Below are positions 12,384 to 33,164 of a stretch of DNA of 61,644 nucleotides, piece by piece (within the stretch, counting starts at the first letter, position 1; the number at the start of each line of letters is the position of its first letter). The position numbers were made by a program, and so were the translations under genes. The stretch spans positions 21,533-83,176 of the forward strand of contig PAJK01000034.1 of assembly GCA_002706025.1 (NCBI GenBank), in the 5' to 3' direction. The notes beneath the pieces are model-generated. The model did no database searches. It was not told where the DNA came from and saw only the letters and a list, made by a program, of their open reading frames with translations. The stretch is from Oceanospirillaceae bacterium. GTDB lineage: Bacteria > Pseudomonadota > Gammaproteobacteria > Pseudomonadales > Oceanobacteraceae.

Positions 12384-12719
12384 ATGACTGACTCAACGAA
12401 TGCTCAGACCGATGCCCGCCAGCGTCTGTACACGGCACTGGCGGGCATTCCCGCTGGCTATGTCATTACCTACGGTCAGCTGGCAGCCCTCGCCGGATTC
12501 AGCCGTCGCGCCCGCTGGGCAGGCCAGGTACTGAAGCAACTTCCCCAGGACAGCCGCCTGCCATGGCACAGGGTCATTAACGCTCAGGGCAAAATCAGCC
12601 TGCCGGGCGACGCCGGTGAAAAGCAGCGTGCCTTGCTGGAAAGCGAGGGAGTGACCGTCAGCGATAGCCTGCGCATCGATCTGAGTTTATTCAGCTGGCA
12701 GAAAGCAGATACTGAATAA
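12384..12719 (+). CDS. Alkyltransferase-like protein (ATL/YbaZ, MGMT family)
   Basis: ITYGQLA; PWHRV with Trp in place of the catalytic Cys of PCHRV. Confidence 0.9.
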   Translation: MTDSTNAQTDARQRLYTALAGIPAGYVITYGQLAALAGFSRRARWAGQVLKQLPQDSRLPWHRVINAQGKISLPGDAGEKQRALLESEGVTVSDSLRIDLSLFSWQKADTE

Positions 12720-14591: not shown

Positions 14592-14624
14592 AATAAAAAT
14601 GCCGGCTTAGCCGGCATTTTTATT
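14592..14624. terminator. Bidirectional intrinsic terminator
   Basis: AATAAAAATGCCGGC-TTA-GCCGGCATTTTTATT between convergent genes. Confidence 0.9.
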
Positions 14625-14647: not shown

Positions 14648-17086
14648 TCAGAGCTTACCTTCCGGATAAGGGTGAGCAATCACGTCATACGGATCACCAT
14701 CACCACAGATCGCCGCCCACTCCTGCGAACTCAGCCATTCCAGCGGATCACGGCCACTCAGTTTGGCAAGCGCTGCCAGAGCATCGGCCCAGGTACAGCG
14801 ATTGGCGAATAACAGCGCTTCAGTATTCAGTGTACCGCCCTGATTGATATAACCCAGAGCAACCGTATGCGCAGGCCCTAAATCCAGCATACGTGCGTGA
14901 GCCAATAAAATTTCCGGACGGGTGTGAGTCATAAAAACACGCTGCTGAACCCGTGCCGGGAACAAGGCGTCCAGCACGGATGGATCCGCCTGAATATCAG
15001 ATTCATAACCATCGCGCGGAACCCTGAAACGGCCTGGTTCGAGCAGGTAAATCAGCGAGTGTGAAACGCCCTTCTGCTTCAAACGGTCTGACGCCTTTAA
15101 AGCCTGCTGTAACTGGAACGCCCCGCAGGCCACCAGCTGCAGATCTGCTGCGCAATTACCGCGTACACAAATAGCGCCGTCCTGCACCAGAGTCACTGCC
15201 TGGGCACCGCTAAAAAAGGTTGGTAAGACCGATTTCGGTACAACCATATTCCAGATCACACCGAGATCGCCGTAACAGGTTTTTAAACAGGCCATAGCCG
15301 TATTGCCATCTGCCGGGAAGACCACGCGCGACATATCTGACATCTCGCCCAGCATAGCTTCCGCCAGACTCGGGTCCTGATGGCTTTGCTCATTCTTTCC
15401 GTTTTCCCAGACATGGGAGGTCGAGATAACCGGCACACCCAACCATGGAGCAGGATCGTCAGCTTCTTTCTGATGGCGGGCAAAAATAATACTCTGCCGT
15501 AACGCTCCGAGCATTTTTGTGGCAAAGGCTTCATAAGAAACCACCAGATTTAAACCGCTCTGATTTGCCAGACAGGCACTGACCACGGCTTCTTCATTCA
15601 GCGCAGTAACTACTGCGCCATCAACCGCCTCAGCCACACCCTCTTCCGGATCAGTAACACGGTGTTTCAGCTGATCCAACGTCTGGTTCATGCGGTTGGA
15701 GCGCAGTTCATCCGGATTACCCACCCGGACTCTTAGATGAGGATTTACTTCGACAAGATCAATAAAATAATTATCAATCGCTGCCATCGGTGCGATCGGA
15801 TCTTTTTGCCAGTGCGGGTCATGGCGGTTAATGGTGACAGCAACCGGTGGCAGCGGCGCTTTCGGCTGCTTAAGCTCATTAACAGCTGAACGCCAGACAC
15901 TTTCCTCCTGCCACAGTGCTTTTGCACCGCGGACAAAATAGGCAAGCGCCTCAGAATCACGGCGCGGATTACTGCCCAAAGGTAAACCATGAGCGGCGTT
16001 CGTACCGGCTCCGGGGAAACCATAACCCTTAACTGTTTCAGCGATGCAGTAAGGCATTGGCACCGGATAACTGGCCATACCGCTGGCCACGGTTTCCGCC
16101 GCATTACTCAGGTGCTGTTCCATAAAATAAATGGCGCAAACAAAAGCTGCCGGGTCGCGCCCGTCAATAACAAAGGGCGCAAAACCCTGATTGCTCAGAT
16201 GCTCCATAAACCATTCACTGCCGCCCTGCTGAGCAACTGTTGTGCGCTGATCAATGCGACGGCCATTGGCAATCATCACCGGACTGACCAGACCACAGTC
16301 TTCAGCCCGCCACCAGCGTGCCGCCCAATCGCTGCCACGCTGCTCTTCAAATGCACCGTCACTTAAGAAAGCGACCAGTCGTTGTCCCGGTAATGGCTGG
16401 TGCACATACTGCAGCCCGGCAAAGCCCAGATAGCCACCTTCAAGACGCGCACCAGCGGTATTAACATTCACATGACTGCCTAGTGGCGACAGAGGCTTAC
16501 CATCCGGGCGTACGCGGTAATTATAAAAATCCTGCACGAAGCGACTGAGTCCTTCGTCGCTCAGCCCATATTCTTTTTTACGCTCTGGCAGCGCAGTACC
16601 TGTCAGCAATTGCAGGGCATCAATAGCAGCCACACAATGCCCCTGTCCCATCAGCCAGTCACGATGTTGGCCTGTAAGCGTATTGACCGCCATTAATGCC
16701 GCATAAGCCGGCACCATATTCAGTGATCCACCGGTATGCCCTTGTGGATCGCGTTTGAAATCCTCCGCGACCAGATCGCGGCCATCCAGGAATACGTGTT
16801 TGGTGTAGGTCATATGGACCACCAGCCACATCGCCTGGTTAGTAAGCTGATCCAGCGCCGTCAGCGTACGGTAACAGTCTGCCTTGCTTTGAATGAGACC
16901 ACCTTCCTCGAGGGCGGTAGCCAGTTCAAACACCTGCAATTGTGTAGCTGCAGTATGTTTAACCACCCCACACCCTTCCGCCCAGGCAGCAAATTCCTCG
17001 TCGTATTCCCGGTGTTGCCGGGCTTCCGCTTCGATTTCTTTCTGTTGATACTGCTGGCTGAGTTTCTGGTAAAGATTAAGACTCAT
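14648..17086 (-). CDS. Divergent ThDP-dependent phosphoketolase (XFP)-family protein
   Basis: GHTGG, GQGHC, EGGYLG, SDGAFEE...NGRRI, NPDELRSNRM, SYEAF and HVWENGKNEQSHQDP align with canonical GHWGT, GPGHG, EGGELG, GDGEAE..NG, GPDE..SNR, YEAF and HVWRQDHNGFSHQDP. Confidence 0.8.
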   Translation of the reverse strand: MSLNLYQKLSQQYQQKEIEAEARQHREYDEEFAAWAEGCGVVKHTAATQLQVFELATALEEGGLIQSKADCYRTLTALDQLTNQAMWLVVHMTYTKHVFLDGRDLVAEDFKRDPQGHTGGSLNMVPAYAALMAVNTLTGQHRDWLMGQGHCVAAIDALQLLTGTALPERKKEYGLSDEGLSRFVQDFYNYRVRPDGKPLSPLGSHVNVNTAGARLEGGYLGFAGLQYVHQPLPGQRLVAFLSDGAFEEQRGSDWAARWWRAEDCGLVSPVMIANGRRIDQRTTVAQQGGSEWFMEHLSNQGFAPFVIDGRDPAAFVCAIYFMEQHLSNAAETVASGMASYPVPMPYCIAETVKGYGFPGAGTNAAHGLPLGSNPRRDSEALAYFVRGAKALWQEESVWRSAVNELKQPKAPLPPVAVTINRHDPHWQKDPIAPMAAIDNYFIDLVEVNPHLRVRVGNPDELRSNRMNQTLDQLKHRVTDPEEGVAEAVDGAVVTALNEEAVVSACLANQSGLNLVVSYEAFATKMLGALRQSIIFARHQKEADDPAPWLGVPVISTSHVWENGKNEQSHQDPSLAEAMLGEMSDMSRVVFPADGNTAMACLKTCYGDLGVIWNMVVPKSVLPTFFSGAQAVTLVQDGAICVRGNCAADLQLVACGAFQLQQALKASDRLKQKGVSHSLIYLLEPGRFRVPRDGYESDIQADPSVLDALFPARVQQRVFMTHTRPEILLAHARMLDLGPAHTVALGYINQGGTLNTEALLFANRCTWADALAALAKLSGRDPLEWLSSQEWAAICGDGDPYDVIAHPYPEGKL

Positions 17087-17133
17087 CAGTTTTCTCCATG
17101 CTGGGCCCGTAAGGCCATCTTTGCTGTTCGCCT

Positions 17134-18114
17134 TCAGGCCAGCGGTTTTTGCAACATGCTCAGTAATTCATTACAAAGCAGCGGTGTAATATCAATTGCG
17201 TTGCTGGTGTGCGGAATGCAATTGCAGGTCACTATGCCTGCAACCGGGCCGGCCAACATTTCTTCTTCGGCACCGGGATTGCCATTTTCTCCCTGCGAAA
17301 AAACCGCATGCACACCAATACACAGAGGTGGATTCAACCCCTGCGCCACCAGTTCTTCCGCGGTACGCAACATGGTGCGCCCGGTAGAAATAATGTCATC
17401 CACCAGCACCGGCTGATGTTCAGAATATTTCTGCACATCCGGGATATGGATCACCACATCACGGTCGCCGGAACGTGTTTTACGCAGCACCAGAAATTCG
17501 CATCCGGCCACGCCGGCTACTTCACTGGCCCATTGTTCACTTTCTTCATCCGGCCCGACGACCAATGGGTTTCTGACCTGATTTTTCAGATAGTCACCGA
17601 TTAAATCGGTCGCATGCAAAGCCACCGCAGGAATACGGTAAATCTCACTGAGGGATTTATAGCGGTGCAGATGCGGATCGACGGTAATTAAATAATCGAA
17701 ACTCTGGTTAATCAGTTCGGCAAAATATTTCGATGTCAGACATTCGCCCGGCTGAAAGCGGATATCCTGACGCATATAGGCCAGATACGGTGCCACCAGT
17801 CCAACGCGGGCCACGCCCATATCGCGCAGATGATGGGCCATAAACCACAAAGCCAGCGTTTTATCGCTGGGCTGATGCAGATGGCAGACCACAATCACAT
17901 CGGCACCGGCCATATCCTGCGGCAGGTTAAAATACAGCTCACCATCGGGAAAATGGCGGCTCTCCAGTGCCAGTACCTGACACTCTCGTCCGGCATTTGT
18001 CAGCTGCATTGCCAGCGACCGTGCCAGCGACTCATGGCCATCAAGAGACAGAATACAGGTGCGCTTTACTGATGATTCAGCAGCCGCCTGAGCGCTTATA
18101 TTTCCGTTCGTCAT
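17134..18114 (-). CDS. Ribose-phosphate pyrophosphokinase (PRPP synthetase)-like protein
   Basis: FPDGE, PYLAYMRQD, VDPHLH, GPDEES and VDDIISTGRT motifs; ATGA overlap with the upstream gene. Confidence 0.9.
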   Translation of the reverse strand: MTNGNISAQAAAESSVKRTCILSLDGHESLARSLAMQLTNAGRECQVLALESRHFPDGELYFNLPQDMAGADVIVVCHLHQPSDKTLALWFMAHHLRDMGVARVGLVAPYLAYMRQDIRFQPGECLTSKYFAELINQSFDYLITVDPHLHRYKSLSEIYRIPAVALHATDLIGDYLKNQVRNPLVVGPDEESEQWASEVAGVAGCEFLVLRKTRSGDRDVVIHIPDVQKYSEHQPVLVDDIISTGRTMLRTAEELVAQGLNPPLCIGVHAVFSQGENGNPGAEEEMLAGPVAGIVTCNCIPHTSNAIDITPLLCNELLSMLQKPLA

Positions 18115-19628
18115 ACGACTTCCTCTTCAATACGGATCACATCAGTATGACCATCAAGAAACTCCAGAGCGTAGGCCAGCTCTCCCGGGGCTTCAGCATA
18201 GAGAGTAAATAAAGGTGCCCCGCAATCGATAACGTCTCCTGACGCTACATGCAGTTCAATGCCCGCAGCCTTTGCATTTGGAGCCCCGGCCAGCGATGCC
18301 AGCTTGGCCAGAAAGCGGTTATTGAAATAAGAAACGACGCCTTTTTTCTCCGCCCGGACACAATGACGGAATTCAGCCATCTGTGGCTCATGAAATCCGC
18401 CCTGAGCCTGACAGATAGCTTCAAATTTTTGCATGGCCGCACCACTGAGCAACGTACTTTGCGCCAGCTCATAGCCCTGACCATCCGCAACTTTACCCGC
18501 CATTTCCAGCAGAATACCGGCCAGCTGTAGTGACTTTTCGCGCAGATCCTGCGGCGCGTGACCATCATTGCGCAGCACCTGTAACACATCCCGGGCTTCA
18601 AGCGCCGGGCCAATACCGCGGCCAACAGGCTGACTGCCATCACTGATAACCGTACGCACATCCAGTCCCAGCGCCTGGCCGGTTTTTTCCAGCAGGCTGC
18701 GCAGCGTCTGCGCCATTGTCTGAGAGCGGACCTTGGCCGTTGGACCAACCGGAATATCAATCAGCACCTGTTTCGATCCGGCAGCGACTTTCTTGGAAAT
18801 AACCGACGCCACCAGCTGACCTTCACTGTCGAGATCCAGCGCCCGCTCAACACGAATGATGAGATCATCGGTTGGACTCAGGCTGACCGAGCCACCCCAG
18901 GCCAGACAGGCACCCTGTTCTTTTACGACGCTCTGCATGGCATCAAAGGACAATGCTACCGGCGTCATGGCTTCCATGGTGTCTGCCGTTCCGGCCGGAG
19001 AGGTGATCGCACGGCTGGATGTTTTCGGCATCAGCAGACCGTTAGCAGCAACAATCGCTACAACAATGGGGGTTGTACGGTTACCCGGCAGACCGCCGAC
19101 ACAGTGCTTATCGAGCACCACATCACTGTGCCAGTCAAACTGCTGACCAGCAGCAACCATAGCGCGGGTAATGGCGATGGTTTCATCCAGACTCAGGCGG
19201 TCGCCGGCGCAGGCAGTCACATAGGCAGACAGCTGAATGTCACTGTACAGGCCATTGTTAATATCACGCACAATCGCGGCGGCCGATTCATCAGTAAACG
19301 CCTGACCGTAGAGCTTGCCGCGCACAAACGACATGGAATCCACAGGATGGGCGTGACGGAAGGTCGCTTTGCTGCCTTCTTCAGGACAGCCCAGACGGTG
19401 CCACGCGGCCTCTGAAAGACCGGCCTGCTGGTGGGAAAGCAGTTCATTTGAAACCAGCACCAGGGTGGCGACGACACTTTTGTCCGCAACGCTGACCTCC
19501 ACCCGGGTGTGAGCAAAAAATCCCTCAGAAATGGCAACATGACAATCCTGTCGCATATATACGACAGGTTCCTGATGGGTATTCACGCCCAAACGATGGA
19601 GATAGAGATAATCGGGATTGGATTCCAT
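18111..19628 (-). CDS. AMP/NMP phosphorylase-type member of the thymidine phosphorylase family
   Basis: About 100-aa N-terminal extension; DKHCVGGLPGN, KTSSRAITSPAGTAD and GRGIGPALEA motifs; AGGA RBS before ATG 19628. Confidence 0.88.
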   Translation of the reverse strand: MESNPDYLYLHRLGVNTHQEPVVYMRQDCHVAISEGFFAHTRVEVSVADKSVVATLVLVSNELLSHQQAGLSEAAWHRLGCPEEGSKATFRHAHPVDSMSFVRGKLYGQAFTDESAAAIVRDINNGLYSDIQLSAYVTACAGDRLSLDETIAITRAMVAAGQQFDWHSDVVLDKHCVGGLPGNRTTPIVVAIVAANGLLMPKTSSRAITSPAGTADTMEAMTPVALSFDAMQSVVKEQGACLAWGGSVSLSPTDDLIIRVERALDLDSEGQLVASVISKKVAAGSKQVLIDIPVGPTAKVRSQTMAQTLRSLLEKTGQALGLDVRTVISDGSQPVGRGIGPALEARDVLQVLRNDGHAPQDLREKSLQLAGILLEMAGKVADGQGYELAQSTLLSGAAMQKFEAICQAQGGFHEPQMAEFRHCVRAEKKGVVSYFNNRFLAKLASLAGAPNAKAAGIELHVASGDVIDCGAPLFTLYAEAPGELAYALEFLDGHTDVIRIEEEVV

Positions 19629-19653
19629 AAGCTTTCCTGATTTATGAAGCAAA

Positions 19654-19723
19654 AGTGTAGAAGTCTGGCCGCTTAACCGCCTTGCGGTAAATCAACCAAG
19701 CTTCAGACTCTGTTTCCCAAAGT
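19654..19723. promoter_or_regulatory. Divergent promoter with FNR/ANR-type box
   Basis: TTGCG-GTAA-ATCAA (19682-19695); minus-strand -10 TACACT at 19659-19654 puts the box centre at -41.5; plus-strand CAAAGT (19718-19723) is at the mirror position. Confidence 0.65.
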
Positions 19724-19787
19724 GAAACGGGTCTGCCAAACTGCAGTCAGATGTGCATTATCCTTCAGAAGTTTCAGGAGTTACACC

Positions 19788-21155
19788 ATGCAAGCCCCAT
19801 TTCAGGTTCAGTTCATTGGCGCCACCGGAACCGTTACCGGCTCCAAATATCTGGTGAAATACGACCGCTATAAGATTCTTATCGACTGCGGCCTGTTTCA
19901 GGGGATTAAAAATGTGCGTAAGCGCAACTGGGCCGAATTGCCGTTTGCCGTTGAGGCACTGGATGCTTTATTGCTTACCCATGCCCATATAGATCACTCC
20001 GGTTATTTACCCGCACTGATGAAACAGGGCTTCCATGGTCCGGTTTACTGTTCAGAAGGAACACATGCTTTATGCAAAGTATTACTGCCGGATGCCGGTT
20101 ACCTGCAGGAAGAAGATGCCAAATACGCGAACCGTAAGCGCTTCTCCAAACACGATCCGGCAGAGCCTCTGTACACCGAAGAAGATGCCCGTAAAGTACT
20201 CAAACAATTTAAACACCAGCAGGCCGGAGAAGTACAGGAATTACCTGGCGGTATGACGGCAACATTTACTCCGGTGGGACATATTCTTGGCGCCAGCGCA
20301 ATTCGTCTGGAATATCAGGGAAAGAGCATCACCTTCAGTGGCGATGTCGGGCGCAGCAACGACATAATCATGTACCCGCCAAAACCGCTGGCCGCCACCG
20401 ACTATCTGGTGGTGGAATCTACCTACGGTGACCGTCGCCATGAAGAAATTGATGCCGAAGCGGCAATCGCAGACATCATTAACCGCACGGCCAAACGGGG
20501 CGGAATTGTATTAATGCCGGCATTTGCCGTGGGTCGTGCGCAGCTGGTCCTGCATATTCTGCAGAAACTGCTGGCAGAAAAACGCATTCCGACTATGCCC
20601 ATTTACCTCAACAGCCCAATGGCGATCCGCGCCACGGAAATTTTCTTTGACTTACATGAATCGCACAAATTAACCAAAGAAGACTGTGAGCGCATGGATG
20701 CGATTACCCACTACGTAAAAACGGTGGAAGAATCCATTGAGCTTAACAGCCGTAAATTTCCGTCGGTCATTATTTCCGCCAGCGGTATGGCCAGTGGCGG
20801 CCGTGTTCTGCACCATTTAAAAACCCTGATCAGTGATCCGAAAAACTCCGTGCTGTTTCTTGGTTATCAGGCTGCCGGCACCCGCGGAGACTCGCTTACA
20901 CATGGAGCCGAGCATATTAAAATTCACGGTGAGTACTATCCCGTAAAAGCAGAAGTTGCAAACCTGCAGGCGTTATCGAGCCATGGTGATTACGTCGAAA
21001 TCAGTGACTGGCTGAAGAAAATGCCAGGCCGCCCGAAGAAAGTCTTTGTTACTCACGGTGAAGCTTCCGCGGCTGACGCGATGCGCCGCCATTTACATGA
21101 CGAATTCCACTGGGATGTGGAAGTGCCGGAATACCTGGATATCGCCCTGCTCTGA
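19788..21155 (+). CDS. MBL-fold beta-CASP ribonuclease (YSH1/CPSF73-like)
   Basis: LIDCG, THAHIDHSG, SGDVG, ASGMASGGR, LSSHGD and VTHGE motifs; CAGGAG RBS. Confidence 0.9.
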   Translation: MQAPFQVQFIGATGTVTGSKYLVKYDRYKILIDCGLFQGIKNVRKRNWAELPFAVEALDALLLTHAHIDHSGYLPALMKQGFHGPVYCSEGTHALCKVLLPDAGYLQEEDAKYANRKRFSKHDPAEPLYTEEDARKVLKQFKHQQAGEVQELPGGMTATFTPVGHILGASAIRLEYQGKSITFSGDVGRSNDIIMYPPKPLAATDYLVVESTYGDRRHEEIDAEAAIADIINRTAKRGGIVLMPAFAVGRAQLVLHILQKLLAEKRIPTMPIYLNSPMAIRATEIFFDLHESHKLTKEDCERMDAITHYVKTVEESIELNSRKFPSVIISASGMASGGRVLHHLKTLISDPKNSVLFLGYQAAGTRGDSLTHGAEHIKIHGEYYPVKAEVANLQALSSHGDYVEISDWLKKMPGRPKKVFVTHGEASAADAMRRHLHDEFHWDVEVPEYLDIALL

Positions 21156-21180: not shown

Positions 21181-22044
21181 ATGACAGACATAAAAACGCT
21201 CAGACTGTTTCAGGTGGATGCTTTTATCCGCCCGGCGCAGCGTATCGCCAATAGTGGAGTAATATTCTCCGGTAATCCGGCAGCAGTCGTGCCGCTGGAA
21301 CAATGGCTTCCTGATCAACTGATGCAGGCCATCGCAGCGGAGAATAATCTGTCTGAAACTGCATTTTTTACCGGCTCAGACGGCCACTACCATATTCGCT
21401 GGTTTACCCCCGAAACCGAAGTGGATTTATGTGGCCACGCCACTCTGGCATCTGCCTGGGTCATTGCACAACAACTTCAGGACCAGAATAGCGAATACAG
21501 ATTCACCACAGAAAGCGCAGGCGATCTGAGCGTTGTTGTAAGCGGCGAGCCATCTGATCCTCTGCTTGAACTTAACTTTCCTCAGCGGGTACCGGAAACT
21601 CTGGATGACGCTCAGTTAAAGAAAGAACTGAGCATTGCTCTTGGCCAGAATGTTGTCGCGCTGAGCAGCAGCCGTGATCTTGTGGTAGAACTTGAAAATG
21701 CAGAGGCGGTCATTGGCTGCATCCCTGATATGCACCGCATTGCTGAGCTGACATCAAAGTGGTTTGCGGTGATCATTACCGCCCGCTATGAAACACCTGA
21801 GTATGACTTCGTCAGTCGTTTTTTTGCGCCGTTGCAGGGAATAGCCGAAGACCCGGTGACGGGTTCGTCATTCTGCAGTCTTGCGCCCTACTGGGCTGAG
21901 AAGTTGAGTATCAGCCAGCTGAAAGCCTGGCAATGTTCAGCCCGTGGCGGCGATGCCGAACTGGAGATTCACGACGACAGGGTTAAAATCCGCGGACGCT
22001 GTTTTTCGTACCTGAGTGGTAACATTAACCTGCCAGCCAGTTGA
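21181..22044 (+). CDS. PhzF family epimerase/isomerase
   Basis: GNPAAV, NLSETAF, EVDLCGHATL and EDPVTGS motifs. Confidence 0.92.
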   Translation: MTDIKTLRLFQVDAFIRPAQRIANSGVIFSGNPAAVVPLEQWLPDQLMQAIAAENNLSETAFFTGSDGHYHIRWFTPETEVDLCGHATLASAWVIAQQLQDQNSEYRFTTESAGDLSVVVSGEPSDPLLELNFPQRVPETLDDAQLKKELSIALGQNVVALSSSRDLVVELENAEAVIGCIPDMHRIAELTSKWFAVIITARYETPEYDFVSRFFAPLQGIAEDPVTGSSFCSLAPYWAEKLSISQLKAWQCSARGGDAELEIHDDRVKIRGRCFSYLSGNINLPAS

Positions 22045-23192: not shown

Positions 23193-24170
23193 TTACAGAG
23201 CAACACCGTCCAGTACGATAGTCGGTTCGTTACCACAACCGCTGAAAGTGACGCTCAATTCAGTGCCGTCATCATCGGTAAGCACGATGCTGCCACTGCC
23301 AATGCTGCCATCGCTACAGATGCTGATATTGCTGGCATCCAGTGTTACTGAACCGTATTCAGGATGGTAGAAGGTTGCTTCAACAGAGTACTGACCATCA
23401 ATAGAGCTTACGCTCGCATCACTCACCTGGTAAGTGGTACCGTCAGAGCCCACGAACTGGTCGTAGTAGGTACAGTCGTAGTTGCTGTTGCACGTCATTG
23501 AACCTGTGATGCGCACAGTCTCGCCATTCATTGTGTAGGTCAGATTCCAGGATGAATAAGACAGCTCGTATGATTGGCTATCTGATTCAATAACATAGGT
23601 ACCGTTAACAGTTTCAGTGATGCCCTCATAGGTGTACTGGAGGTTGTTGTAACGCAGAGTAGTACGTGTGGTGGAACCGCTGGTCGAGCTGGTAGCGTCC
23701 ACAGTACCGTTCATAGTCATACTGTATTCACAGTAGTCATTATAAGTAATAGTAAAGTCATTTTCGGAGCCGGAGTAATTAACAGAACCACCACAGCTAC
23801 CAGCGACGGTTTCGTCCACTGCCACAGGCATAGACAAGCTGCTCTGTTCAAAGCCAGCAACCGTTTCTGCGGTAATATCCAGCACAGTCTTCACTGCTGT
23901 AGAGTCTGCTGCTGCTAAAATACCGGTCGGAAGGTTGCCGACATCGGCACCGGATTCATCGCTTTCAATCAGATCACTGACGATCTCACTGGAGCTGGAA
24001 GCAAAATCAGAACTGTTATCGGTATCAAAACTGGCTGGCGTTGTGACACCATCGTACTCAACGATATCATCATCAGAACCGGAAGAGCTGCCGCCGCCTC
24101 CACCACCGCCGCCACACGCGGTAAGTACACCAGTCACTGCAAGTAATAAAAGATAATTATATTTTGACAT
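23193..24170 (-). CDS. Acidic Ser/Thr-rich lipoprotein (array paralog 5)
   Basis: Lipobox VLTA|C, Gly/Ser linker, GSCGG..YNDYC and C..DGS..G....TFSGC motifs; GGAG RBS before ATG 24170. Confidence 0.85.
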   Translation of the reverse strand: MSKYNYLLLLAVTGVLTACGGGGGGGGSSSGSDDDIVEYDGVTTPASFDTDNSSDFASSSSEIVSDLIESDESGADVGNLPTGILAAADSTAVKTVLDITAETVAGFEQSSLSMPVAVDETVAGSCGGSVNYSGSENDFTITYNDYCEYSMTMNGTVDATSSTSGSTTRTTLRYNNLQYTYEGITETVNGTYVIESDSQSYELSYSSWNLTYTMNGETVRITGSMTCNSNYDCTYYDQFVGSDGTTYQVSDASVSSIDGQYSVEATFYHPEYGSVTLDASNISICSDGSIGSGSIVLTDDDGTELSVTFSGCGNEPTIVLDGVAL

Positions 24171-24578
24171 TTTTTGTCTCCATGACAATACGAGGGCTTA
24201 GGCCGGGCAATATCCAGCAAATTGAATATACAACAGACATATTCCCAACACACCTCTGATTACACGATCAACATCATATTTTTACGCTGGGTAACAATTA
24301 ATTTGATATCTGTCATTCTGTGGCAGGAAATAACCCTGACTACGATAACAAATGAATTACAGATCCGACAGAAAGGCTGTCTGAGATTGTATGTAGCAGC
24401 ACTTTTAAAAATTCAGGTATTATTAATTTTATCATTACTTAATAACAACATAGTTATTAAGTAATAACTACTGAAATATACGTCGCGCACACGCTCTTTT
24501 CATACTTCAAAAATCTGACGCGAAACCTTGCGCAATGATTCGCCCGCTGACATCTGCTATTTGCTGCAAAACCCGTCT

Positions 24579-24593
24579 TTGACTAAGAGTCAA
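24579..24593. promoter_or_regulatory. Perfect palindrome TTGACT-AAG-AGTCAA
   Basis: Directly readable; partial copy TGACTAAG at 24623-24630. Confidence 0.45.
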
Positions 24594-24819
24594 TTATATG
24601 TCCTTATTGAGCGCCATATTTATGACTAAGGAATCAATGGTTGATCTGAGCTATAGTCTCTGTAGTGCCGTACACGGGTTTCATACTCAGCAGATGGTGA
24701 GCATTGCTCAGTAAAGATCAGTACAGAACAATTGCAGCCAGCACAGAGCAGTACTTATAACGCTTACATGAACAGAAGCCGCATCTAAGAGCGGGCGAAG
24801 AGCGGGTGACCAACAGAGA

Positions 24820-25128
24820 ATGAACGTCCTTCCAGGCAGTGTAATCTCAACAGCTTATGTCGATAACGCCAGCAGGAAACCTGCGTACGGTGACAGGCTG
24901 CCTGAGGAAGAGAACCAGGGTTCTCGTGAGCCATATGAGACCATCAGCAAGCCCCAGACCGTCGCCGAATACATTCCTGCCTACCCTGACGACACCGAGC
25001 TACAGCAGTACCGGGAACGCCAAAACCAGAACGAAAGTACAAATAATTTCAGTAAAACATTTATGGCGTTTTCTTCCGATATGCCCGACACCAACAGCAA
25101 GGGACGATTCGTTGATATCACAGTCTGA
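24820..25128 (+). CDS. Hypothetical 102-aa hydrophilic protein
   Basis: AGAG upstream of ATG, followed by a terminator; ends GRFVDITV. Confidence 0.55.
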   Translation: MNVLPGSVISTAYVDNASRKPAYGDRLPEEENQGSREPYETISKPQTVAEYIPAYPDDTELQQYRERQNQNESTNNFSKTFMAFSSDMPDTNSKGRFVDITV

Positions 25129-25162
25129 TAAAGGGATTTAAATCGAAGATAAAAACAGGAAG

Positions 25163-25195
25163 GAAAAGGGTCAGCAGTCCGCGCTGGCCCTTTTC
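25163..25195. terminator. Bidirectional terminator
   Basis: GAAAAGGGTCAGC...GCTGGCCCTTTTC between convergent genes. Confidence 0.75.
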
Positions 25196-25300
25196 TGTTT
25201 CATTTCCATTTTCTGTTTTAACTCTGCTCTGGTGCGCTTCTGCAACATTCCCTGCACCCATCCCTGCACCAAATAACACAACAGCAAAGAAGCTTTTCTG

Positions 25301-26461
25301 TTACCGGACTGCCGGCACAAGCTCCAATGAGTAGTCGTTGCAGCCATTAACGGTAACCCGCCAGGTGTCTCCAGAGCCTGTCATCGTGAACTGGCCAGAG
25401 CGCAGACCGGGTTCATCAAGGCACCGCTGCACACTGCGTTCAACAGCATAAGCCACCCGGCCAAAATCAGACAGATCAACCGCCCCCTGCTGCCAGCGAT
25501 AAACCTGGCCTCCCGCGGAGTAAAGTATATCCGTCTGAGCTGAATCATCTGAATCAAAGAATACCGTGGACTCCAGCAGGTGATTGCCGGCAATGACCTG
25601 TTCATTCACGACTCTGCGGTTACGATAACGAACGTCCCGGCCTGCAGTGCTACCGGATACCGTTGAGACATGAGACTCACCTTCCACCCTCAGACGGGCC
25701 TGATCGCCGTTATCGTCGATAGTAAAGTCACCAGAGAACTCTGCACTGCGAACCCGGTCGTTGTACGCCGGCATAACACCGTTATCGGTATAGGAATGAT
25801 CTGAATAAACAACATTTCCGCTGCCATCGAAAAAGACGCTGTCGTCGCAGAAACCAGTGAATACAACACCGGTATCTGTGTCCAGCTCCACTCTGTCTAT
25901 GCCGGCAGCTTCAGGCGCACTATGCTGATAATCCGCTGTAATCTGTACCGTACCGCCGCAGTCGCCAGGCTGGTTATCGCTGTATTGACTGTCTATAGCA
26001 GAAGATGGCGATGATACTGACGGCGCCAAACCCAAAAATACCGCCTGTTCAATAAATGGCAGATAATCCAGATTATTAACAAAAGCAGTCATACTGACGA
26101 TTTCCGGATCATAAATGATCTGAGAGTGTTGATAGTAATGATCGGATAGAGACTGCAGATACAGAAACTCTGCGACCTGCTCAGCGATCGCTGAGCTGTT
26201 GTCGCTGTTCAGTGCGGCTGGCGTACTATCGCCGGTAAACGTCAGGGTACGTACTTCCGGCACAGATGAATCACCGTTGCCTGTATTGCCGTTACCTGGA
26301 TCGCCGTTGTTGCCATCATCCGGATTAGCAGCGATATCTGTATCTGCACCACCGGAAGAAGCACCACCGCCTCCTCCGCCACCACACCCCGTCATCAACA
26401 AAGAAACGCTGGCGACAGCAATAAAAGAGAGAGACTTCAGACTGCTTATACTACTTCCCAT
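25301..26461 (-). CDS. Acidic lipoprotein (array paralog 4)
   Basis: Lipobox LMTG|C, poly-Gly linker, GDCGG..FTGFC and C-terminal C.....G....TVNGC. Confidence 0.85.
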   Translation of the reverse strand: MGSSISSLKSLSFIAVASVSLLMTGCGGGGGGGASSGGADTDIAANPDDGNNGDPGNGNTGNGDSSVPEVRTLTFTGDSTPAALNSDNSSAIAEQVAEFLYLQSLSDHYYQHSQIIYDPEIVSMTAFVNNLDYLPFIEQAVFLGLAPSVSSPSSAIDSQYSDNQPGDCGGTVQITADYQHSAPEAAGIDRVELDTDTGVVFTGFCDDSVFFDGSGNVVYSDHSYTDNGVMPAYNDRVRSAEFSGDFTIDDNGDQARLRVEGESHVSTVSGSTAGRDVRYRNRRVVNEQVIAGNHLLESTVFFDSDDSAQTDILYSAGGQVYRWQQGAVDLSDFGRVAYAVERSVQRCLDEPGLRSGQFTMTGSGDTWRVTVNGCNDYSLELVPAVR

Positions 26462-26560
26462 CTTATATCCTTAATTGTTCTGTATTGCTTAAGAATTTCG
26501 GTATATCTATTCGATTATCCCAATTAAACACAACCGGATAATTGGCATGACCAATTGTAT

Positions 26561-26588
26561 TTAAAACCGAACAATTGTTTGGTTTTAA
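26561..26588. promoter_or_regulatory. 28-bp near-perfect palindrome
   Basis: TTAAAACCGAACAATTGTTTGGTTTTAA, one mismatched pair, 100 bp upstream of paralog 4. Confidence 0.6.
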
Positions 26589-26778
26589 CTTCAAATTAAC
26601 TAATGAAACCTAGCGAATCAAATGAAATTCGTAAAGTTAAATATCCGAAAAAGATTTAAATAATGGATATCAAACAACTGCACTTAAACTTTCGAAAGGA
26701 TAAAGGCAAGAGGAAAGAAGTCGTTCAGGCAATCAATGTATAGAGATGATTATCTTTTCTTTATTCACTATCAGTAAT

Positions 26779-26815
26779 AATGGGATAACGAAGAATTCTT
26801 CTTCGCTATCCCATT
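26779..26815 (-). terminator. Hairpin after lipoprotein 3
   Basis: 17-bp stem AATGGGATAACGAAGAA / TTCTTCGCTATCCCATT with one G-U pair on minus. Confidence 0.7.
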
Positions 26816-26826
26816 CAATAATCAGC

Positions 26827-28065
26827 TCAGAACTCTGTAGGAGCCAAAGCGACAGTCGGTGCAACGCCACACCCATTAAAGGTAATCGTCGCAGCAGTAG
26901 AGAAAGCATCCCAGAACTCAATGGTTCCGGTATTAAAGCCAGAGCCATCGGCACAAAATGTTAGATCCTGAGCATCAGTGAATATTACGCCATAGCCGGT
27001 GTACGATGCTTCCAGACCGAGATCCAGATATCCCCCTTCTAAAGAGACACCTCTCAACTGGTGAATCAAAAATACTGATCCATCATAGGCGAGAATTTCA
27101 TCGTTGGTGTAAGATTCAATTTCACTTTCTGAGTCATATGAAGACAGGTGAATTTCAGAGGATTCAACGATCTGACCATTAATAGTCAATCGCTTGTTAT
27201 CGACTTGCTCACCATTACCAGCATAAACACTGGGGTCTGTACGGTTATCTGCATATTCAAGTCCGGAATTGGTCTTATTCTGCTGATAACGGCCGGTCAG
27301 CCCCTCTGCTGAGACAGTTACATCGACGATTAATTCAGCATTAACTTCGAATGAACCATAATCGTATCCACCTTCAGTACTGTCCGAATCGTTATAAAAA
27401 CTTACATTACCCGCAAATTCTGCGGTTCCGGTAAATACGGTAGCATTCTCATTGTCTCCAAAGGAGTCATATACACAGTAATCTTCAGAGAAGTTGGCAT
27501 TGGAATCTTGCGTAAGAAGGGTCTCCCAGGCAGCTCCGACCTCACTGTCTTCGCCATAGCGTTGCTCGACAGAGGATTCATAAGAGAGCTCTGCTGTCCC
27601 ACCACACTGTCCTGCCCGGGTTTCACTGCCAGACATGGTGTTCTGGCCGACAGTCTCCAGATCCAGATCTAAAGCTGAAGTTGAGCGGCGACTATAATCC
27701 TGAAAGTAATAACCACCGTCTTCACCTAACAATTCTTCTTCCAGAAATTGCATTTCTGCCAGGTATGGCTGTACGGTTTCAACAAGACCTCTGCCATAGG
27801 TGAGTTTTATAATCTCTGCTGCCACGACATCCAGATCAGCCTCTGAAAGATCCGCGTCATCATCTTCACCGGTAAATACCAATGTTTCTGGCTGAGGATC
27901 AACGATCGGCTCTGGTGTTGGTTCAGGTGATGGCTCCGGCGTTACAACGACATCAGGTTCTCCGGAGGATGAACTGCTTCCACCACCACATCCAGCCATT
28001 ACTAACGAACAGGTTCCTACCGCCACACATATAATATTTTTTAATAATTTTGATGAATCACTCAT
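26827..28065 (-). CDS. Acidic lipoprotein (array paralog 3)
   Basis: Lipobox VMAG|C, EP(S/T)P linker, GQCGG..EDYC and FCADGSGFNTGTIEF..ITFNGCG. Confidence 0.88.
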   Translation of the reverse strand: MSDSSKLLKNIICVAVGTCSLVMAGCGGGSSSSSGEPDVVVTPEPSPEPTPEPIVDPQPETLVFTGEDDDADLSEADLDVVAAEIIKLTYGRGLVETVQPYLAEMQFLEEELLGEDGGYYFQDYSRRSTSALDLDLETVGQNTMSGSETRAGQCGGTAELSYESSVEQRYGEDSEVGAAWETLLTQDSNANFSEDYCVYDSFGDNENATVFTGTAEFAGNVSFYNDSDSTEGGYDYGSFEVNAELIVDVTVSAEGLTGRYQQNKTNSGLEYADNRTDPSVYAGNGEQVDNKRLTINGQIVESSEIHLSSYDSESEIESYTNDEILAYDGSVFLIHQLRGVSLEGGYLDLGLEASYTGYGVIFTDAQDLTFCADGSGFNTGTIEFWDAFSTAATITFNGCGVAPTVALAPTEF

Positions 28066-28147
28066 ATACTTCCCTTAATTATTTCCTTTCAATTTAATTT
28101 CCCTACTATAAACAGGGCACCAAAGACATATCATTGCGACATATCAA

Positions 28148-29947
28148 CTATTGGCTTCTGACTACTCTGGGCTTACAGATTTCATCCAGTGTGAAATCAG
28201 CGCCCCAGACATTGCCATTACATGCATTTTTCAGATTTGATATAACTTTGGAGTCGTTCTCCTCCCCATCAGTAACGATCAAATCTGAAAACAGCGGAAA
28301 TGGCAAACCAGACATCAAAACGGAATCATCAGTCAGCGCAACAACCCCAAAATCACAATCCGCATCAGAAACGATCTGACGCCCTGCCTCAAAGAACTGG
28401 CACTCTGAACGGGACTGCCCTTCGTCAAATCGTGATATGTGCTTGTTGAAGTAAGCGACTGCTGATTTTCCTGCTTTCAAGGCATTATTATATAAACCCT
28501 CTGCCACACTATCTGCATCTTTCCCTGTCACTAACACAAGAGGGATCATGCCGCTGTTTTTTACAAGCTTTGCGAGAATCTTTTTATAAACGGAAAGGTC
28601 TGTGTAAGTGCCAATACCTGGCTGGGAATTTACCTCGCAGATAGCCGCACCGCTCTCCTTCCAGGATATTCTTATATCCGGAATCAATAAATCGACACCT
28701 GCCAGATCGAGTCTCAGCACTTTCACTGCTCTTATTGCCAACGCAGAATTATCAGGATGAACGTCATCAAAAACAGCAACAGGCATCCCCCCCGACGATA
28801 CGTTAGAAATTCTGCGGAGCGTCACGACCTGATCGGGCTTTGGGATACTTTTTTCGGTCAGTTTCTGTTTAGCCAACATGAATTTGGCTTCATCATCAAA
28901 CTCTATGCGCGTCAAAGCCGTACGTCGTTCATTTCCCCGCTCCGGACTTGCGTTAACCTGATCAATTAACTGCCTGACGGTCTTAACACCATCCCCTGTC
29001 ACCTGCGCCGGCTGACGTTCAATAGCCCAGACAAGTTCACCCTCAAAGACCGTAAGACGGTAATCTTTCCCAGAGAAATGCTTTTCAAGCATGATTCTCC
29101 GGCCTTTTTCAGCGCTTTTAGCATAGGCTTCACGCAGTTCTTTGTCATTTTTGATTCCGGCAATTACACCATAGCCACGGTCAAGATCCAGCGGTTTCAC
29201 TACAACCGGGTAACCCATTTTTCCGGCAAGATGTACAGCATCATTTACGTTATTCACGGTAACAGAAGGTTGAACCGGCAGCCCATTCATCCTCAGCATC
29301 TGAACCGTGGCCATCTTATTTTTGGCCATATTAGAGCCGACAACCGATGTCGTATCAGTAAAGGTACTGTCCAGCCAACGGCTGTTTGCGCCATAGCCAA
29401 TCTGATGAGCGCGGGCAGGCAATGAAAAATAAGGGAGATTCAACTCATATGCAGCCCTGAGAAAAGACCACATGGTTGTAGACTTTAACGCGACCGAACG
29501 AATTTCAGCGAATATTTTCTGAAAGTCCTGCTGACGGGTATAGCGGCTTCTTGTTAAATCTTTCTCATGCAAAAGTGAGATAAACCAGGCAATTAACTTT
29601 GTAGTAACCGCCGCTGAAGCCGGCGTTACAGGCACCAGCAACTCAGCTTCAGTCTCTCTACTGTCGAGCACCTGACCTGACTGCCACACCGGAACCATGG
29701 CATCCATCTGAATATTAAACACAGCCGCCAGAATAAACTCTGAAACATCATGCAGAAAGTCTGCTGCTTCCGGAAAAACATGTTCACTAAAGTCTATGCC
29801 AGAAAGCTGAGAAGCTGCCTGACAGTAGCTACTGAAGTCGACATTTCCTTCAAGGTCAGTGCGTACAGATACAATAATGGAAGGATTGGGTAATCCTACC
29901 CGATATGCAGAAGTGGAATACTTTTTTTGACTAACTTTCCAGTTCAT
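28148..29947 (-). CDS. Cyanophycin synthetase-like ATP-grasp protein with degenerate Mur-ligase domain
   Basis: IGYGANSRW, KNKMAT..LR..GLPV, YPVVVKP, GKDYRLTV, NVSSGG, AGVDLL and ICEVNSQPG; VTGKDADS where CphA has VTGTNGKTT. Confidence 0.75.
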   Translation of the reverse strand: MNWKVSQKKYSTSAYRVGLPNPSIIVSVRTDLEGNVDFSSYCQAASQLSGIDFSEHVFPEAADFLHDVSEFILAAVFNIQMDAMVPVWQSGQVLDSRETEAELLVPVTPASAAVTTKLIAWFISLLHEKDLTRSRYTRQQDFQKIFAEIRSVALKSTTMWSFLRAAYELNLPYFSLPARAHQIGYGANSRWLDSTFTDTTSVVGSNMAKNKMATVQMLRMNGLPVQPSVTVNNVNDAVHLAGKMGYPVVVKPLDLDRGYGVIAGIKNDKELREAYAKSAEKGRRIMLEKHFSGKDYRLTVFEGELVWAIERQPAQVTGDGVKTVRQLIDQVNASPERGNERRTALTRIEFDDEAKFMLAKQKLTEKSIPKPDQVVTLRRISNVSSGGMPVAVFDDVHPDNSALAIRAVKVLRLDLAGVDLLIPDIRISWKESGAAICEVNSQPGIGTYTDLSVYKKILAKLVKNSGMIPLVLVTGKDADSVAEGLYNNALKAGKSAVAYFNKHISRFDEGQSRSECQFFEAGRQIVSDADCDFGVVALTDDSVLMSGLPFPLFSDLIVTDGEENDSKVISNLKNACNGNVWGADFTLDEICKPRVVRSQ

Positions 29948-29990
29948 AAAGCCAGATAACCATATACAAAGTTATCAGTATATTACCATC

Positions 29991-30019
29991 AAAAAAAAAG
30001 AGGGCATAAGCCCTCTTTT
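29991..30019. terminator. Intrinsic terminator after lipoprotein 2
   Basis: AAAAGAGGGC-ATAA-GCCCTCTTTT. Confidence 0.85.
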
Positions 30020-30033
30020 CTTATCAAGCTACA

Positions 30034-31302: not shown

Positions 31303-31511
31303 GAAAATTCCCTTCAATTATTTATATGGTTTTATTCGTCATACGTTCGCTACGGAATATGGCACCCCGAAATCTGACCATATGGCTTTAAGCTCACAGC
31401 GAAACAAAATAACAACTCAAAAAGCTATCATCATGTTCATAAATCTGTTGATTTCTATTTTTGCGCCAGATGTGAATCATTTATTCTGATGAATACATCA
31501 GCACTTTGTAA

Positions 31512-31530
31512 GGAGGGCATTAAGCCCTCC
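31512..31530 (-). terminator. Hairpin after lipoprotein 1
   Basis: GGAGGGC-ATTAA-GCCCTCC, same stem core as the paralog 2 terminator. Confidence 0.6.
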
Positions 31531-31547
31531 CACGTATTTTTATATTA

Positions 31548-32780: not shown

Positions 32781-32969
32781 AATACTTCCCTTCAAGTAGT
32801 TTTCTGTCTTTTTCTGTGTGTCGCGTCAGGCCAGCAATACGCGGCGAGCGATCTTTTCTGCTGCCCGATTTCGCCAACAGACAGGGCCAAAACCCGAACC
32901 ATTGTTCATCTCTCTGGACAGATAAATTTTGCACCGAGACAGTAACGCTTTGTAGCTGCTTAGTAAAGG

Positions 32970-33164
32970 ATGTAATTTTTTGTCACGGGTGACATTTTTT
33001 GTCACCCCGGATATTAAAAAATGCCCGGAAAGCGGAATGGCCTGAACCGGATCATACGATCCAGAATAAGCATCCGCCTTAAGACGGATATTGAGCGGAA
33101 AAATGCATAATTACGCAAGAAGTCAGCAACATAGGAAGGAAATCGTTGTGACAAATTTTGTCAC
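32970..33164. promoter_or_regulatory. GTGAC-N7-GTCAC operator cluster upstream of the lipoprotein array
   Basis: GTGACATTTTTTGTCAC (32989-33005), GTGACAAATTTTGTCAC (33148-33164), degenerate ATGTAATTTTTTGTCAC (32970-32986). Confidence 0.7.

Follow-up and report, generated by a model that had tools for sequence, protein, structure and literature searches.

We have analyzed a stretch of 61,644 nucleotides (referred to here as the window) from contig PAJK01000034.1 of an Oceanospirillaceae bacterium, in which four adjacent genes encode a phosphoketolase-like protein (XFP-like), a phosphoribosyl pyrophosphate (PRPP) synthase-like protein (PRS-like), a protein of the TP family resembling archaeal nucleoside monophosphate (NMP) or AMP phosphorylases, and a beta-CASP nuclease (Table 1). 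These genes form a conserved module that is present in several phyla and whose linkage is far beyond chance. We regard it as evenly balanced whether the module serves to turn the ribose of nucleotides into acetyl phosphate, and hence ATP, under low oxygen or energy stress. This reading draws on gene linkage, conserved catalytic residues, fold, and published data on operons annotated alike, which are expressed under microoxia and depend on FixK2; all substrates and the direction of flux are predicted.

Conservation of the gene module

A first-pass annotation of this DNA, made from the sequence alone, had described three co-oriented genes, two of them overlapping by ATGA and the third 47 bp away, and a divergent nuclease gene. 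This layout is borne out here, and the divergent region measures 159 bp. The stop codon of the phosphorylase gene and the start codon of the PRS-like gene overlap (GTATGACG, i.e., ATGA), from which the PRS-like gene is predicted to be translationally coupled to the phosphorylase gene. The spacer of 47 bp between the PRS-like and XFP-like genes contains a GGAG ribosome-binding site. All four gene starts are the same in independent calls on marine metagenome contigs of identical sequence, among them a TARA scaffold; this applies also to the phosphorylase ATG at position 19628.

Gene neighbourhoods were compared in two scans. The first was anchored on the phosphorylase and covered 80 species-representative genome loci (50-66% identity) from Gamma-, Alpha- and Betaproteobacteria, Bacteroidota, Verrucomicrobiota (Lentimonas), Planctomycetota and Myxococcota. 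The second was anchored on the XFP-like gene in metagenomes and gave 80 loci, 61 of them non-redundant; of the latter, 23 have 5 kb or more on each side and are referred to as well-flanked. In about 67 of the 80 genome loci, the phosphorylase gene is directly followed, on its own strand, by the PRS-like gene. The nuclease gene is present in 52 of the 80 and on the same strand in 44, usually in the order nuclease, phosphorylase, PRS-like; the divergent layout is restricted to the closest relatives of the window. Well-flanked XFP-like loci contain the phosphorylase (17/23), the PRS-like gene (16/23) and the nuclease (15/23), with all three found together in 15/23. The neighbourhood survey that the first-pass annotation had called for thus finds the genes together in many phyla and in several arrangements.

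At least six gene orders occur. With CASP, TP, PRS and XFP standing for the nuclease, phosphorylase, PRS-like and XFP-like genes and AckA for acetate kinase, they include CASP<>TP-PRS-XFP (the window), CASP-TP-PRS-XFP with 4-bp overlaps (a Sulfitobacter conjugative plasmid), TP-PRS-CASP-(AckA)-XFP (many metagenome loci), PRS-XFP-CASP-TP (an Agrobacterium plasmid), XFP-CASP-TP-PRS (L012, L052) and TP-AckA-XFP-PRS (L009, L046). The four-gene operons on the Sulfitobacter and Agrobacterium plasmids are tightly packed. Because the order varies while the linkage persists, the genes are likely to be functionally coupled.

Acetate kinase adjoins the XFP-like gene in 15 of the 61 non-redundant loci, and in five of the 61 a gene of the transaldolase/FSA family is located directly upstream of it (L104, L108, L110, L148, L149). 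In three of the latter AckA follows downstream, giving a compact Tal-XFP-Ack unit that is devoid of nucleotide genes. In Bacteroidota, the nuclease-phosphorylase-PRS trio is part of long co-directional islands together with canonical Xfp, AckA, D-2-hydroxyacid dehydrogenase and PFK, and the same islands also hold a class I aldolase, a GAPDH-like gene, NDH2, USP and an ATP-cone/Mrr-domain protein.

The four gene products

The phosphorylase belongs to the NP-II family and is annotated as 'thymidine phosphorylase family protein'. It passes the models NF003338 (655 bits; cut-off 434) and TIGR02645 (574 bits; cut-off 434.6). The best match in the Protein Data Bank (PDB) is the AMP/NMP phosphorylase of Thermococcus kodakarensis (Tk-AMPpase; PDB: 4GA5/4GA6; E value 2e-93), and the next solved relatives are pyrimidine-nucleoside phosphorylases (E value ~1e-37). 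The activity of Tk-AMPpase requires an extra N-terminal domain ahead of the NP-II core. The alignment to 4GA5 starts at residue 37 of the chain and residue 45 of the query and therefore covers this domain, the Pfam core of the window protein beginning at about residue 110. The blocks GG(L/V)PGN(R/K)T and TSSRAITS(P/A)AGTAD are common to the archaeal enzyme and invariant in 80 bacterial homologues; the window protein reads GGLPGNRT and TSSRAITSPAGTAD at these phosphate-site blocks. Based on homology at the level of 4GA5, the enzyme would convert NMP and inorganic phosphate (Pi) to the free base and ribose-1,5-bisphosphate (R15P). A Cys/His motif of the N-terminal domain, DCHVC, was considered as a redox or metal site and rejected; it is found only in close relatives and reads DCHVAIS in the window.

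The family of the phosphorylase also admits a biosynthetic role, in which the PRS-like protein would supply PRPP and the NP-II enzyme would act on some base or metabolite as a phosphoribosyltransferase or pyrophosphorylase, yielding a stress nucleotide or some other ribosylated product. NP-II proteins share the Pfam family Glycos_transf_3 with the anthranilate phosphoribosyltransferase TrpD, which has the same fold and to which weak matches were obtained, and the coupling of a PRPP-forming enzyme to a ribosyl-transferring one follows the normal logic of a biosynthetic operon. We nevertheless consider such a pair very improbable, given that the protein is far nearer to Tk-AMPpase than to TrpD (E value ~6e-10) and has phosphate-site blocks of the AMPpase type, and that no candidate acceptor pathway recurs among the neighbours scanned.

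The PRS-like protein is a member of the NF005537/PRK07199 subfamily (362 bits; cut-off 322). Its best PDB match is the PRPP synthase of Methanocaldococcus jannaschii (PDB: 1U9Y; E value 5.5e-33), an archaeal class III enzyme. The motifs FPDGE, RQD and VDPHLH, the K-x-R catalytic (flexible) loop and the DD..T ribose-5-phosphate loop are kept in all 67 homologues. E. coli Prs served as the ruler in this comparison, and the alignment with 1U9Y displays the same motifs.

The XFP-like protein appears, from its sequence and structural model, to represent a deep-branching clade of the phosphoketolase family. It scores 155 bits with the Pfam family XFP and 46 bits with XFP_N, while XFP_C was not detected, and it shares only 17-20% identity with solved phosphoketolases. 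A profile of the clade aligns across all three domains of the Bifidobacterium enzyme XFPK (E value 3e-33). The top 20 Foldseek matches of its AlphaFold2 model (pLDDT 79) are all phosphoketolases (TM 0.68-0.71 over ~800 columns), compared with TM 0.51-0.57 for transketolases. The published mechanistic model of phosphoketolases defines a set of 13 pocket residues (PMC10547157), of which ten are kept: H64, H97, H142, G155, H320, S440, E479, Y501, N549 and H553. K605, E437 and the thiamine diphosphate (ThDP) motif SDG...N are kept as well, and the ThDP and catalytic residues are invariant or nearly so across the clade. The changes are Q321G, Q546N and H548K, together with EGGELGY to EGGYLGF (E156Y), and the protein is extended at its N terminus by roughly 50-70 residues. 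The machinery for cleavage, dehydration and phosphorolysis looks intact, and the sugar specificity may differ. H548K adds a positive charge to the pocket and, speculatively, could fit a bisphosphate substrate. Members of the clade are named 'xylulose 5-phosphate 3-epimerase' or 'phosphoketolase family protein' at NCBI; the former looks like a propagated misannotation, since fold and residues are those of a ThDP-dependent phosphoketolase.

The nuclease comprises the Pfam domains Lactamase_B, Beta-Casp and RMMBL and is of the TTHA0252/CPSF73 type. The RNase TTHA0252 of Thermus thermophilus is its best PDB match (E value 3e-68), followed by Cas14 and aCPSF1. Motifs 1-4 of the metallo-beta-lactamase (MBL) fold, motifs A-C of beta-CASP proteins and the RMMBL domain are all present, and H65xH67xD69H70, H165, D186, E210, H399 and H423 are invariant in 52 homologues. 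By analogy with its family, the nuclease would trim RNA to 5'-NMPs.

Promoter and probable oxygen control

The divergent region between the phosphorylase and nuclease genes contains a candidate box of the CRP/FNR(FixK) type (Table 1). Its centre is 60 nt upstream of the ATG of the phosphorylase and 99 nt upstream of that of the nuclease. The box agrees with TTGAT-N4-ATCAA in eight of the ten positions, and both half-sites are the same as in the published FixK2 box TTGATCCAGCGCAA. Fifteen divergent intergenic regions that otherwise resist alignment have a box of this type as their single conserved block. Matches at 8 or more of the 10 positions occur in 9 of 13 non-redundant divergent regions, compared with a background of 23% (P ~5e-4). 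Judging from these positions and from the Bradyrhizobium data below, the shared promoter is probably driven by an oxygen-responsive activator of the FNR/FixK type. A Crp/Fnr regulator is encoded beside the Agrobacterium plasmid cluster. The intergenic region of one close relative (L086, ~4178-4324) contains another perfect palindrome, TTACGTTGACGTAA, where relatives carry the FNR-type box, and may be served by a different regulator.

In Bradyrhizobium diazoefficiens, the genes bll3117-bll3116-bll3115 encode a thymidine phosphorylase family protein, a ribose-phosphate pyrophosphokinase and an MBL fold hydrolase, all of which belong to the core microoxic proteome. Under microoxia, these products increase by a log2 factor of 2.1, 4.4 and 2.9 at the protein level and 5.1-, 7.7- and 15.4-fold at the RNA level, respectively. 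The operon, which has a FixK2 box at -74, is down 6.6- to 30.6-fold in a fixK2 mutant. Similarly, bll2518-bll2517, encoding a phosphoketolase family protein and acetate kinase and likewise induced by microoxia, are down 10-fold in the fixK2 mutant and have a box at -89. Metatranscriptome contigs cover the locus in the window; they are uninformative on regulation because one 11.4-kb contig of flat depth, which may include DNA, spans convergent genes.

Proposed pathway

In the pathway that we propose, the nuclease would first degrade RNA to 5'-NMPs, which the phosphorylase would convert with Pi to base and R15P. The PRS-like enzyme would then handle the ribose phosphate, either as an ordinary PRPP synthase or, in reverse, by releasing ribose-5-phosphate (R5P) and transferring the phosphoryl group at C1 to an adenine nucleotide. 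Housekeeping Rpi and Rpe, or transaldolase, would supply a ketose phosphate, which the divergent phosphoketolase would split to acetyl phosphate and either glyceraldehyde-3-phosphate or erythrose-4-phosphate. This cleavage is suggested by the conserved catalytic residues and fold and by the ack and tal neighbours. Acetate kinase, encoded elsewhere in the genome, would finally transfer the phosphate of acetyl phosphate to form ATP. Together with a lactate-type dehydrogenase, as in the islands of Bacteroidota, the route would be redox-neutral.

Three roles can be considered for the PRS-like enzyme. It might be a stress PRPP synthase for base salvage, an option that leads to adenylate homeostasis as discussed below. 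It might alternatively apply reverse PRS chemistry to R15P (R15P + AMP to R5P + ADP), by which the phosphate would be conserved; this is pure conjecture, and we know of no precedent for the reaction with a PRS-type enzyme. By a rough estimate the reaction is uphill, although the phosphoketolase step, being strongly exergonic, could draw it forward. Thirdly, the phosphorylase might use pyrophosphate to form PRPP, from which a reversed PRS would make ATP; on thermodynamic grounds this is the least likely of the three. The boldest proposal, which we regard as a long shot, is that the PRS-like enzyme acts in vivo as an R15P:AMP (or ADP) phosphotransferase releasing R5P and, with the new phosphoketolase clade and acetate kinase, supports a redox-neutral, O2-independent fermentation of RNA and nucleotides.

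Evidence against the pathway and alternative explanations

A number of observations weigh against this pathway. Its weak point is the conversion of R15P to a ketopentose phosphate, for which there is no supporting enzyme nearby. Neither the window nor the recurrent neighbour families scanned contained an isomerase, phosphatase or kinase converting R15P. A domain search of the large open reading frames (ORFs) of the window detected neither IF-2B/R15P-isomerase nor RuBisCO domains, in agreement with the first-pass annotation, and acetate kinase is also missing from the window. R15P isomerase and RuBisCO are absent from the recurrent neighbour families of the 160 loci scanned, whole genomes not having been searched, and Rpi and Rpe were likewise sought in these families and not found. 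The recurrent neighbours that were found are P1B ATPase, MerR, ICMT, USP, the ATP-cone/Mrr protein, MFS and 2-hydroxyacid dehydrogenase, as well as PFK, aldolase, the GAPDH-like gene, NDH2, SPFH proteins and transaldolase.

The PRS-like protein has been placed in a catabolic route by the first-pass annotation. The gene is indeed tied to that of the phosphorylase, but every PRPP-synthase motif is kept, and the protein resembles an ordinary PRPP synthase, a better fit with synthesis or salvage than with catabolism; its catabolic role is a guess. An alternative is that the phosphorylase removes excess AMP or other NMPs when ATP is low, that the PRS-like protein is a stress PRPP synthase for re-salvage of the bases on recovery, and that nuclease and phosphoketolase are merely co-regulated within one low-oxygen regulon. 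This homeostasis or salvage of the adenylate pool accords with the PRS-like motifs and model score, with an invariant core of just phosphorylase and PRS-like gene (~67/80), with the lack of the nuclease and any phosphoketolase at many loci, and with the separate locus of the phosphoketolase-ack operon in Bradyrhizobium. It leaves unexplained why the XFP-like gene is tied to the trio in about three quarters of the well-flanked loci and why, in L009 and L046, the phosphorylase and PRS genes have ackA and the XFP-like gene between them, and R15P would have no fate if PRPP were made from R5P and ATP. On balance we consider this explanation unlikely.

Further reservations concern specificity. The first-pass assignment to the archaeal AMP phosphorylase type agrees with the nearest solved relative and the shared N-terminal domain, but the protein remains under the cut-off of the curated AMP-phosphorylase equivalog TIGR03327 (AMP_phos; 470 bits; cut-off 535). 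The assignment of the XFP-like protein as a phosphoketolase is in keeping with its fold, its ThDP and catalytic residues and the ack and tal neighbours in relatives, but the protein fails the curated models (129.5 bits with the best NCBIfam phosphoketolase subfamily model; cut-off 777), and the three altered pocket residues imply that its substrate may not be xylulose-5-phosphate or fructose-6-phosphate. For RNA as the source of nucleotides, the family of the nuclease is the sole indication. The sequence of reactions given in the first-pass annotation, from RNA via NMP, R15P and pentose phosphate to acetyl phosphate, is therefore plausible and supported in part, by the module, the enzyme types and the low-oxygen data, while its exit from R15P is unsupported.

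A role in survival at low oxygen, raised as a possibility in the first-pass annotation, fits the microoxia and FixK2 data from Bradyrhizobium and the positional conservation of the box. Boxes matching at 8 of 10 positions are, however, common (56 in the window; 33 expected). Upstream of the module genes, the FNR boxes showed a 10-fold enrichment over mononucleotide shuffles, which was rejected as evidence because it disappeared against the real intergenic regions of the same loci, where no enrichment was found. For this reason the case for the box depends on positional conservation and the Bradyrhizobium data, and the latter were matched to the module by identical NCBI family names and operon structure rather than by sequence.

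The first-pass annotation had seen rare co-occurrence of the genes as damaging to its proposal. Phosphorylase, PRS-like and nuclease genes are widely linked, but the XFP-like gene is within 10 kb in just 10 of the 80 phosphorylase loci, i.e., about one eighth, and canonical Xfp in 5. Of the 80 loci, 35 contain a YHS-domain P1B heavy-metal ATPase (TIGR01525; 660 bits), and links of the phosphorylase-PRS pair to such ATPases are no rarer than those to a phosphoketolase. Around the ATPase are MerR-type regulators, ICMT-family proteins, DUF2933, RND efflux genes and HMA proteins (L010, L011, L163, L164, L166), and it is in some cases translationally coupled to the PRS gene; in Martelella its start overlaps the PRS stop codon. 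It is conceivable that the pair serves this ATPase or the detoxification of metals, for instance as a source of nucleotides, phosphate or a ligand, and that the link to fermentation is secondary. Such an accessory role would account for these neighbours and for carriage on 126 plasmids (see below). No ATPase or metal genes are near the window operon, however, and no biochemical logic joins NMP phosphorolysis to metal export. Metal efflux systems belong to the microoxic FixK2 regulon of Bradyrhizobium, and the co-location of the ATPase can hence be explained by shared low-oxygen control, which counts against a role in metal stress. We judge that role to be highly improbable.

Plasmid carriage and accessory proteins

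Homologues of the phosphorylase were found on 126 PLSDB plasmids, 48 of them conjugative, from hosts including Legionella (conjugative), Ralstonia, Cupriavidus, Sphingobium and Criblamydia (Chlamydiae) (e.g., NZ_CP114577.1 and NZ_LK031773.1), and the XFP-like gene was found on 15. Such carriage points to frequent horizontal transfer of the module among environmental bacteria and those associated with amoebae. Defence systems include nucleotide-degrading enzymes, and the frequency of the module on conjugative plasmids, as well as the relationship of the nuclease to Cas14 of type VII CRISPR systems, would be compatible with a mobile-element cargo that acts in conflict, for example by anti-phage nucleotide depletion or as a nuclease effector. 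The module has, on the other hand, metabolic and stress-related neighbours, its expression in Bradyrhizobium is controlled by oxygen, and the window copy is in a core chromosomal region. Anti-phage defence was set aside after none of the four proteins matched a PADLOC defence model, and we regard it as extremely improbable.

Two accessory proteins recur, chiefly in Bacteroidota. In 15 loci, most of them from Bacteroidota, the gene immediately upstream of the nuclease encodes a protein of ~280 aa with an ATP-cone and an Mrr_cat (restriction-endonuclease-like) domain (these loci include L016, L029, L035, L037, L038, L040-L043, L054, L064, L070 and L072; e.g., L054:17283-18128). It could be a nucleotide-sensing regulator or a nuclease of the same system. 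The second, a protein of 216 aa that matches no Pfam or NCBIfam model, is always encoded after the PRS-like gene and in its orientation, in L041 (12406-13056) and 12 further loci from Bacteroidota; an ORF of ~97 aa and then the P1B ATPase come next.

Genomic context of the window

The features of the window are given in Table 1. The remainder is core chromosome (dnaE, pnp, truB, infB, nusA, tpiA, glmM, folP, ftsH, carAB and dnaJ), and the nearest protein matches are to relatives within the Oceanospirillales (Bacterioplanoides, Bacterioplanes and Bermanella). The hairpin downstream of the XFP-like gene is likely to be a bidirectional terminator for the phosphorylase-PRS-XFP operon and a convergent FMO-like gene. 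The PhzF-like gene begins 25 bp 3' of the nuclease gene and may be co-transcribed with it. A gene at the same place was found only in the nearest relatives (L086-L088) and is absent from the other loci; because its position is kept only there, it is not a core part of the module, and its candidacy as the missing isomerase was rejected for the same reason.

Table 1. Location of the module genes and other features in the window
Feature	Position	Strand	Size	Remarks
XFP-like (phosphoketolase-like) gene	14648-17086	-	812 aa	
PRS-like (PRPP-synthase-like) gene	17134-18114	-	326 aa	
Archaeal-type NMP/AMP-phosphorylase-like (TP-family) gene	18111-19628	-	505 aa	
Beta-CASP nuclease gene	19788-21155	+	455 aa	
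Divergent intergenic (promoter) region	19629-19787		159 bp	between phosphorylase operon and beta-CASP gene
CRP/FNR(FixK)-type box, candidate	19682-19695	phosphorylase strand		TTGATTTACCGCAA
Hairpin	14592-14624			perfect 15-bp stem, AATAAAAATGCCGGC-TTA-GCCGGCATTTTTATT; A/T runs on both sides
PhzF-family isomerase-like gene	21181-22044	+		Pfam PhzC-PhzF, 192 bits
MGMT-domain protein gene	12384-12719	+	111 aa	
Low-GC region	24000-33000			adjoins pnp; five large ORFs

Two other regions of the window were noted. The MGMT-domain protein consists of the DNA-binding domain only, with PWHRV replacing the catalytic PCHRV, a replacement that is the signature of alkyltransferase-like (ATL) DNA-damage sensors. 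The low-GC region (44-47% compared with ~52%) contains ORFs of 386, 412, 599, 427 and 415 aa that match no Pfam family, except for a weak ATP-grasp match in one, and may be a horizontally acquired island.

Implications

Many obligate aerobes, among them rhizobia, Legionella, Ralstonia, relatives of Burkholderia, marine Oceanospirillales and flavobacteria, outlast long spells of anoxia or energy starvation by mechanisms that are poorly understood. If the proposed pathway is correct, it would provide ATP independently of respiration from the largest internal store of the cell, i.e., ribosomal RNA and nucleotides, by a directly testable route. It would also assign a function to the very large and misleadingly annotated gene pair of 'thymidine phosphorylase family protein' and 'ribose-phosphate pyrophosphokinase', and would extend the pentose bisphosphate pathway, which is thought to be essentially archaeal, to common bacteria. 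Should the PRS-like enzyme be the phosphotransferase described above, several ATP would be gained per nucleotide, and the pentose bisphosphate pathway would have a third variant, this one bacterial, which plasmids spread among aerobes as a kit for anoxic survival. A new deep clade of phosphoketolases would in addition interest metabolic engineers.

Comparison with known systems

No pathway has been described for this gene combination in the literature searched. A search for a bacterial route of NMP phosphorylase, PRS and phosphoketolase found none, as the first-pass annotation had supposed, and papers on the lxa locus and on anoxic survival of Burkholderia cenocepacia make no mention of the module genes. 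We compare it as an uncharacterised module that shares parts with several known systems.

The phosphoketolase pathway (Xfp and acetate kinase), as represented by XFPK from Bifidobacterium (PDB: 3AI7 and 3AHC) and XPK from Lactococcus (PDB: 6GUA), resembles the module in fold, catalytic residues and, at some of the loci, the ack and transaldolase neighbours, whereas the XFP-like gene is tied to genes for nucleotide enzymes rather than sugar uptake. The FixK2 regulon of B. diazoefficiens has three of the annotated families in one operon and boxes at -74 and -89, compared with a candidate box at -60 in the window; there, the phosphoketolase operon is unlinked, the likeness is drawn at the level of annotation, and the papers on the regulon assign these genes no function. 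The nuclease has the domain set and metal-binding motifs of TTHA0252, for which, in contrast, no link to nucleotide phosphorolysis has been reported. In E. coli, Amn removes AMP under energy stress by a hydrolytic reaction that conserves no phosphate bond, and PhnN links R15P to PRPP. With these enzymes, the second of which is an R15P kinase (cited in PMC9700705), there is a functional analogy only, the protein families being unrelated.

The closest parallels are archaeal. In haloarchaea, homologues of NMP phosphorylase are restricted to species that have RuBisCO, and a pentose bisphosphate pathway of the non-carboxylating kind employs guanosine phosphorylase, a kinase for ribose-1-phosphate, R15P isomerase, ribulose-1,5-bisphosphate phosphatase and ribulose-1-phosphate aldolase (PMC9700705). 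The enzymes of this pathway are different throughout, R15P isomerase is retained and neither phosphoketolase nor a PRS-like enzyme takes part, yet it offers a precedent for a variant with a RuBisCO-free exit. The archaeal NMP shunt, or pentose bisphosphate pathway, consists of the NMP (AMP) phosphorylase TK0352, the R15P isomerase TK0185 and the form III RuBisCO TK2290 (PMC9700705). The module differs from it in the fixed PRS-like partner, in a phosphoketolase exit (with acetate kinase) in place of the isomerase and RuBisCO, neither of which was found in the window or recurrent neighbourhoods, and in its aerobic bacterial hosts and probable low-oxygen control. It is alike in the type of its first enzyme, which has the N-terminal domain and phosphate-site blocks of Tk-AMPpase, and in the principle by which the ribose of nucleotides would be led into central carbon metabolism, namely phosphorolysis.

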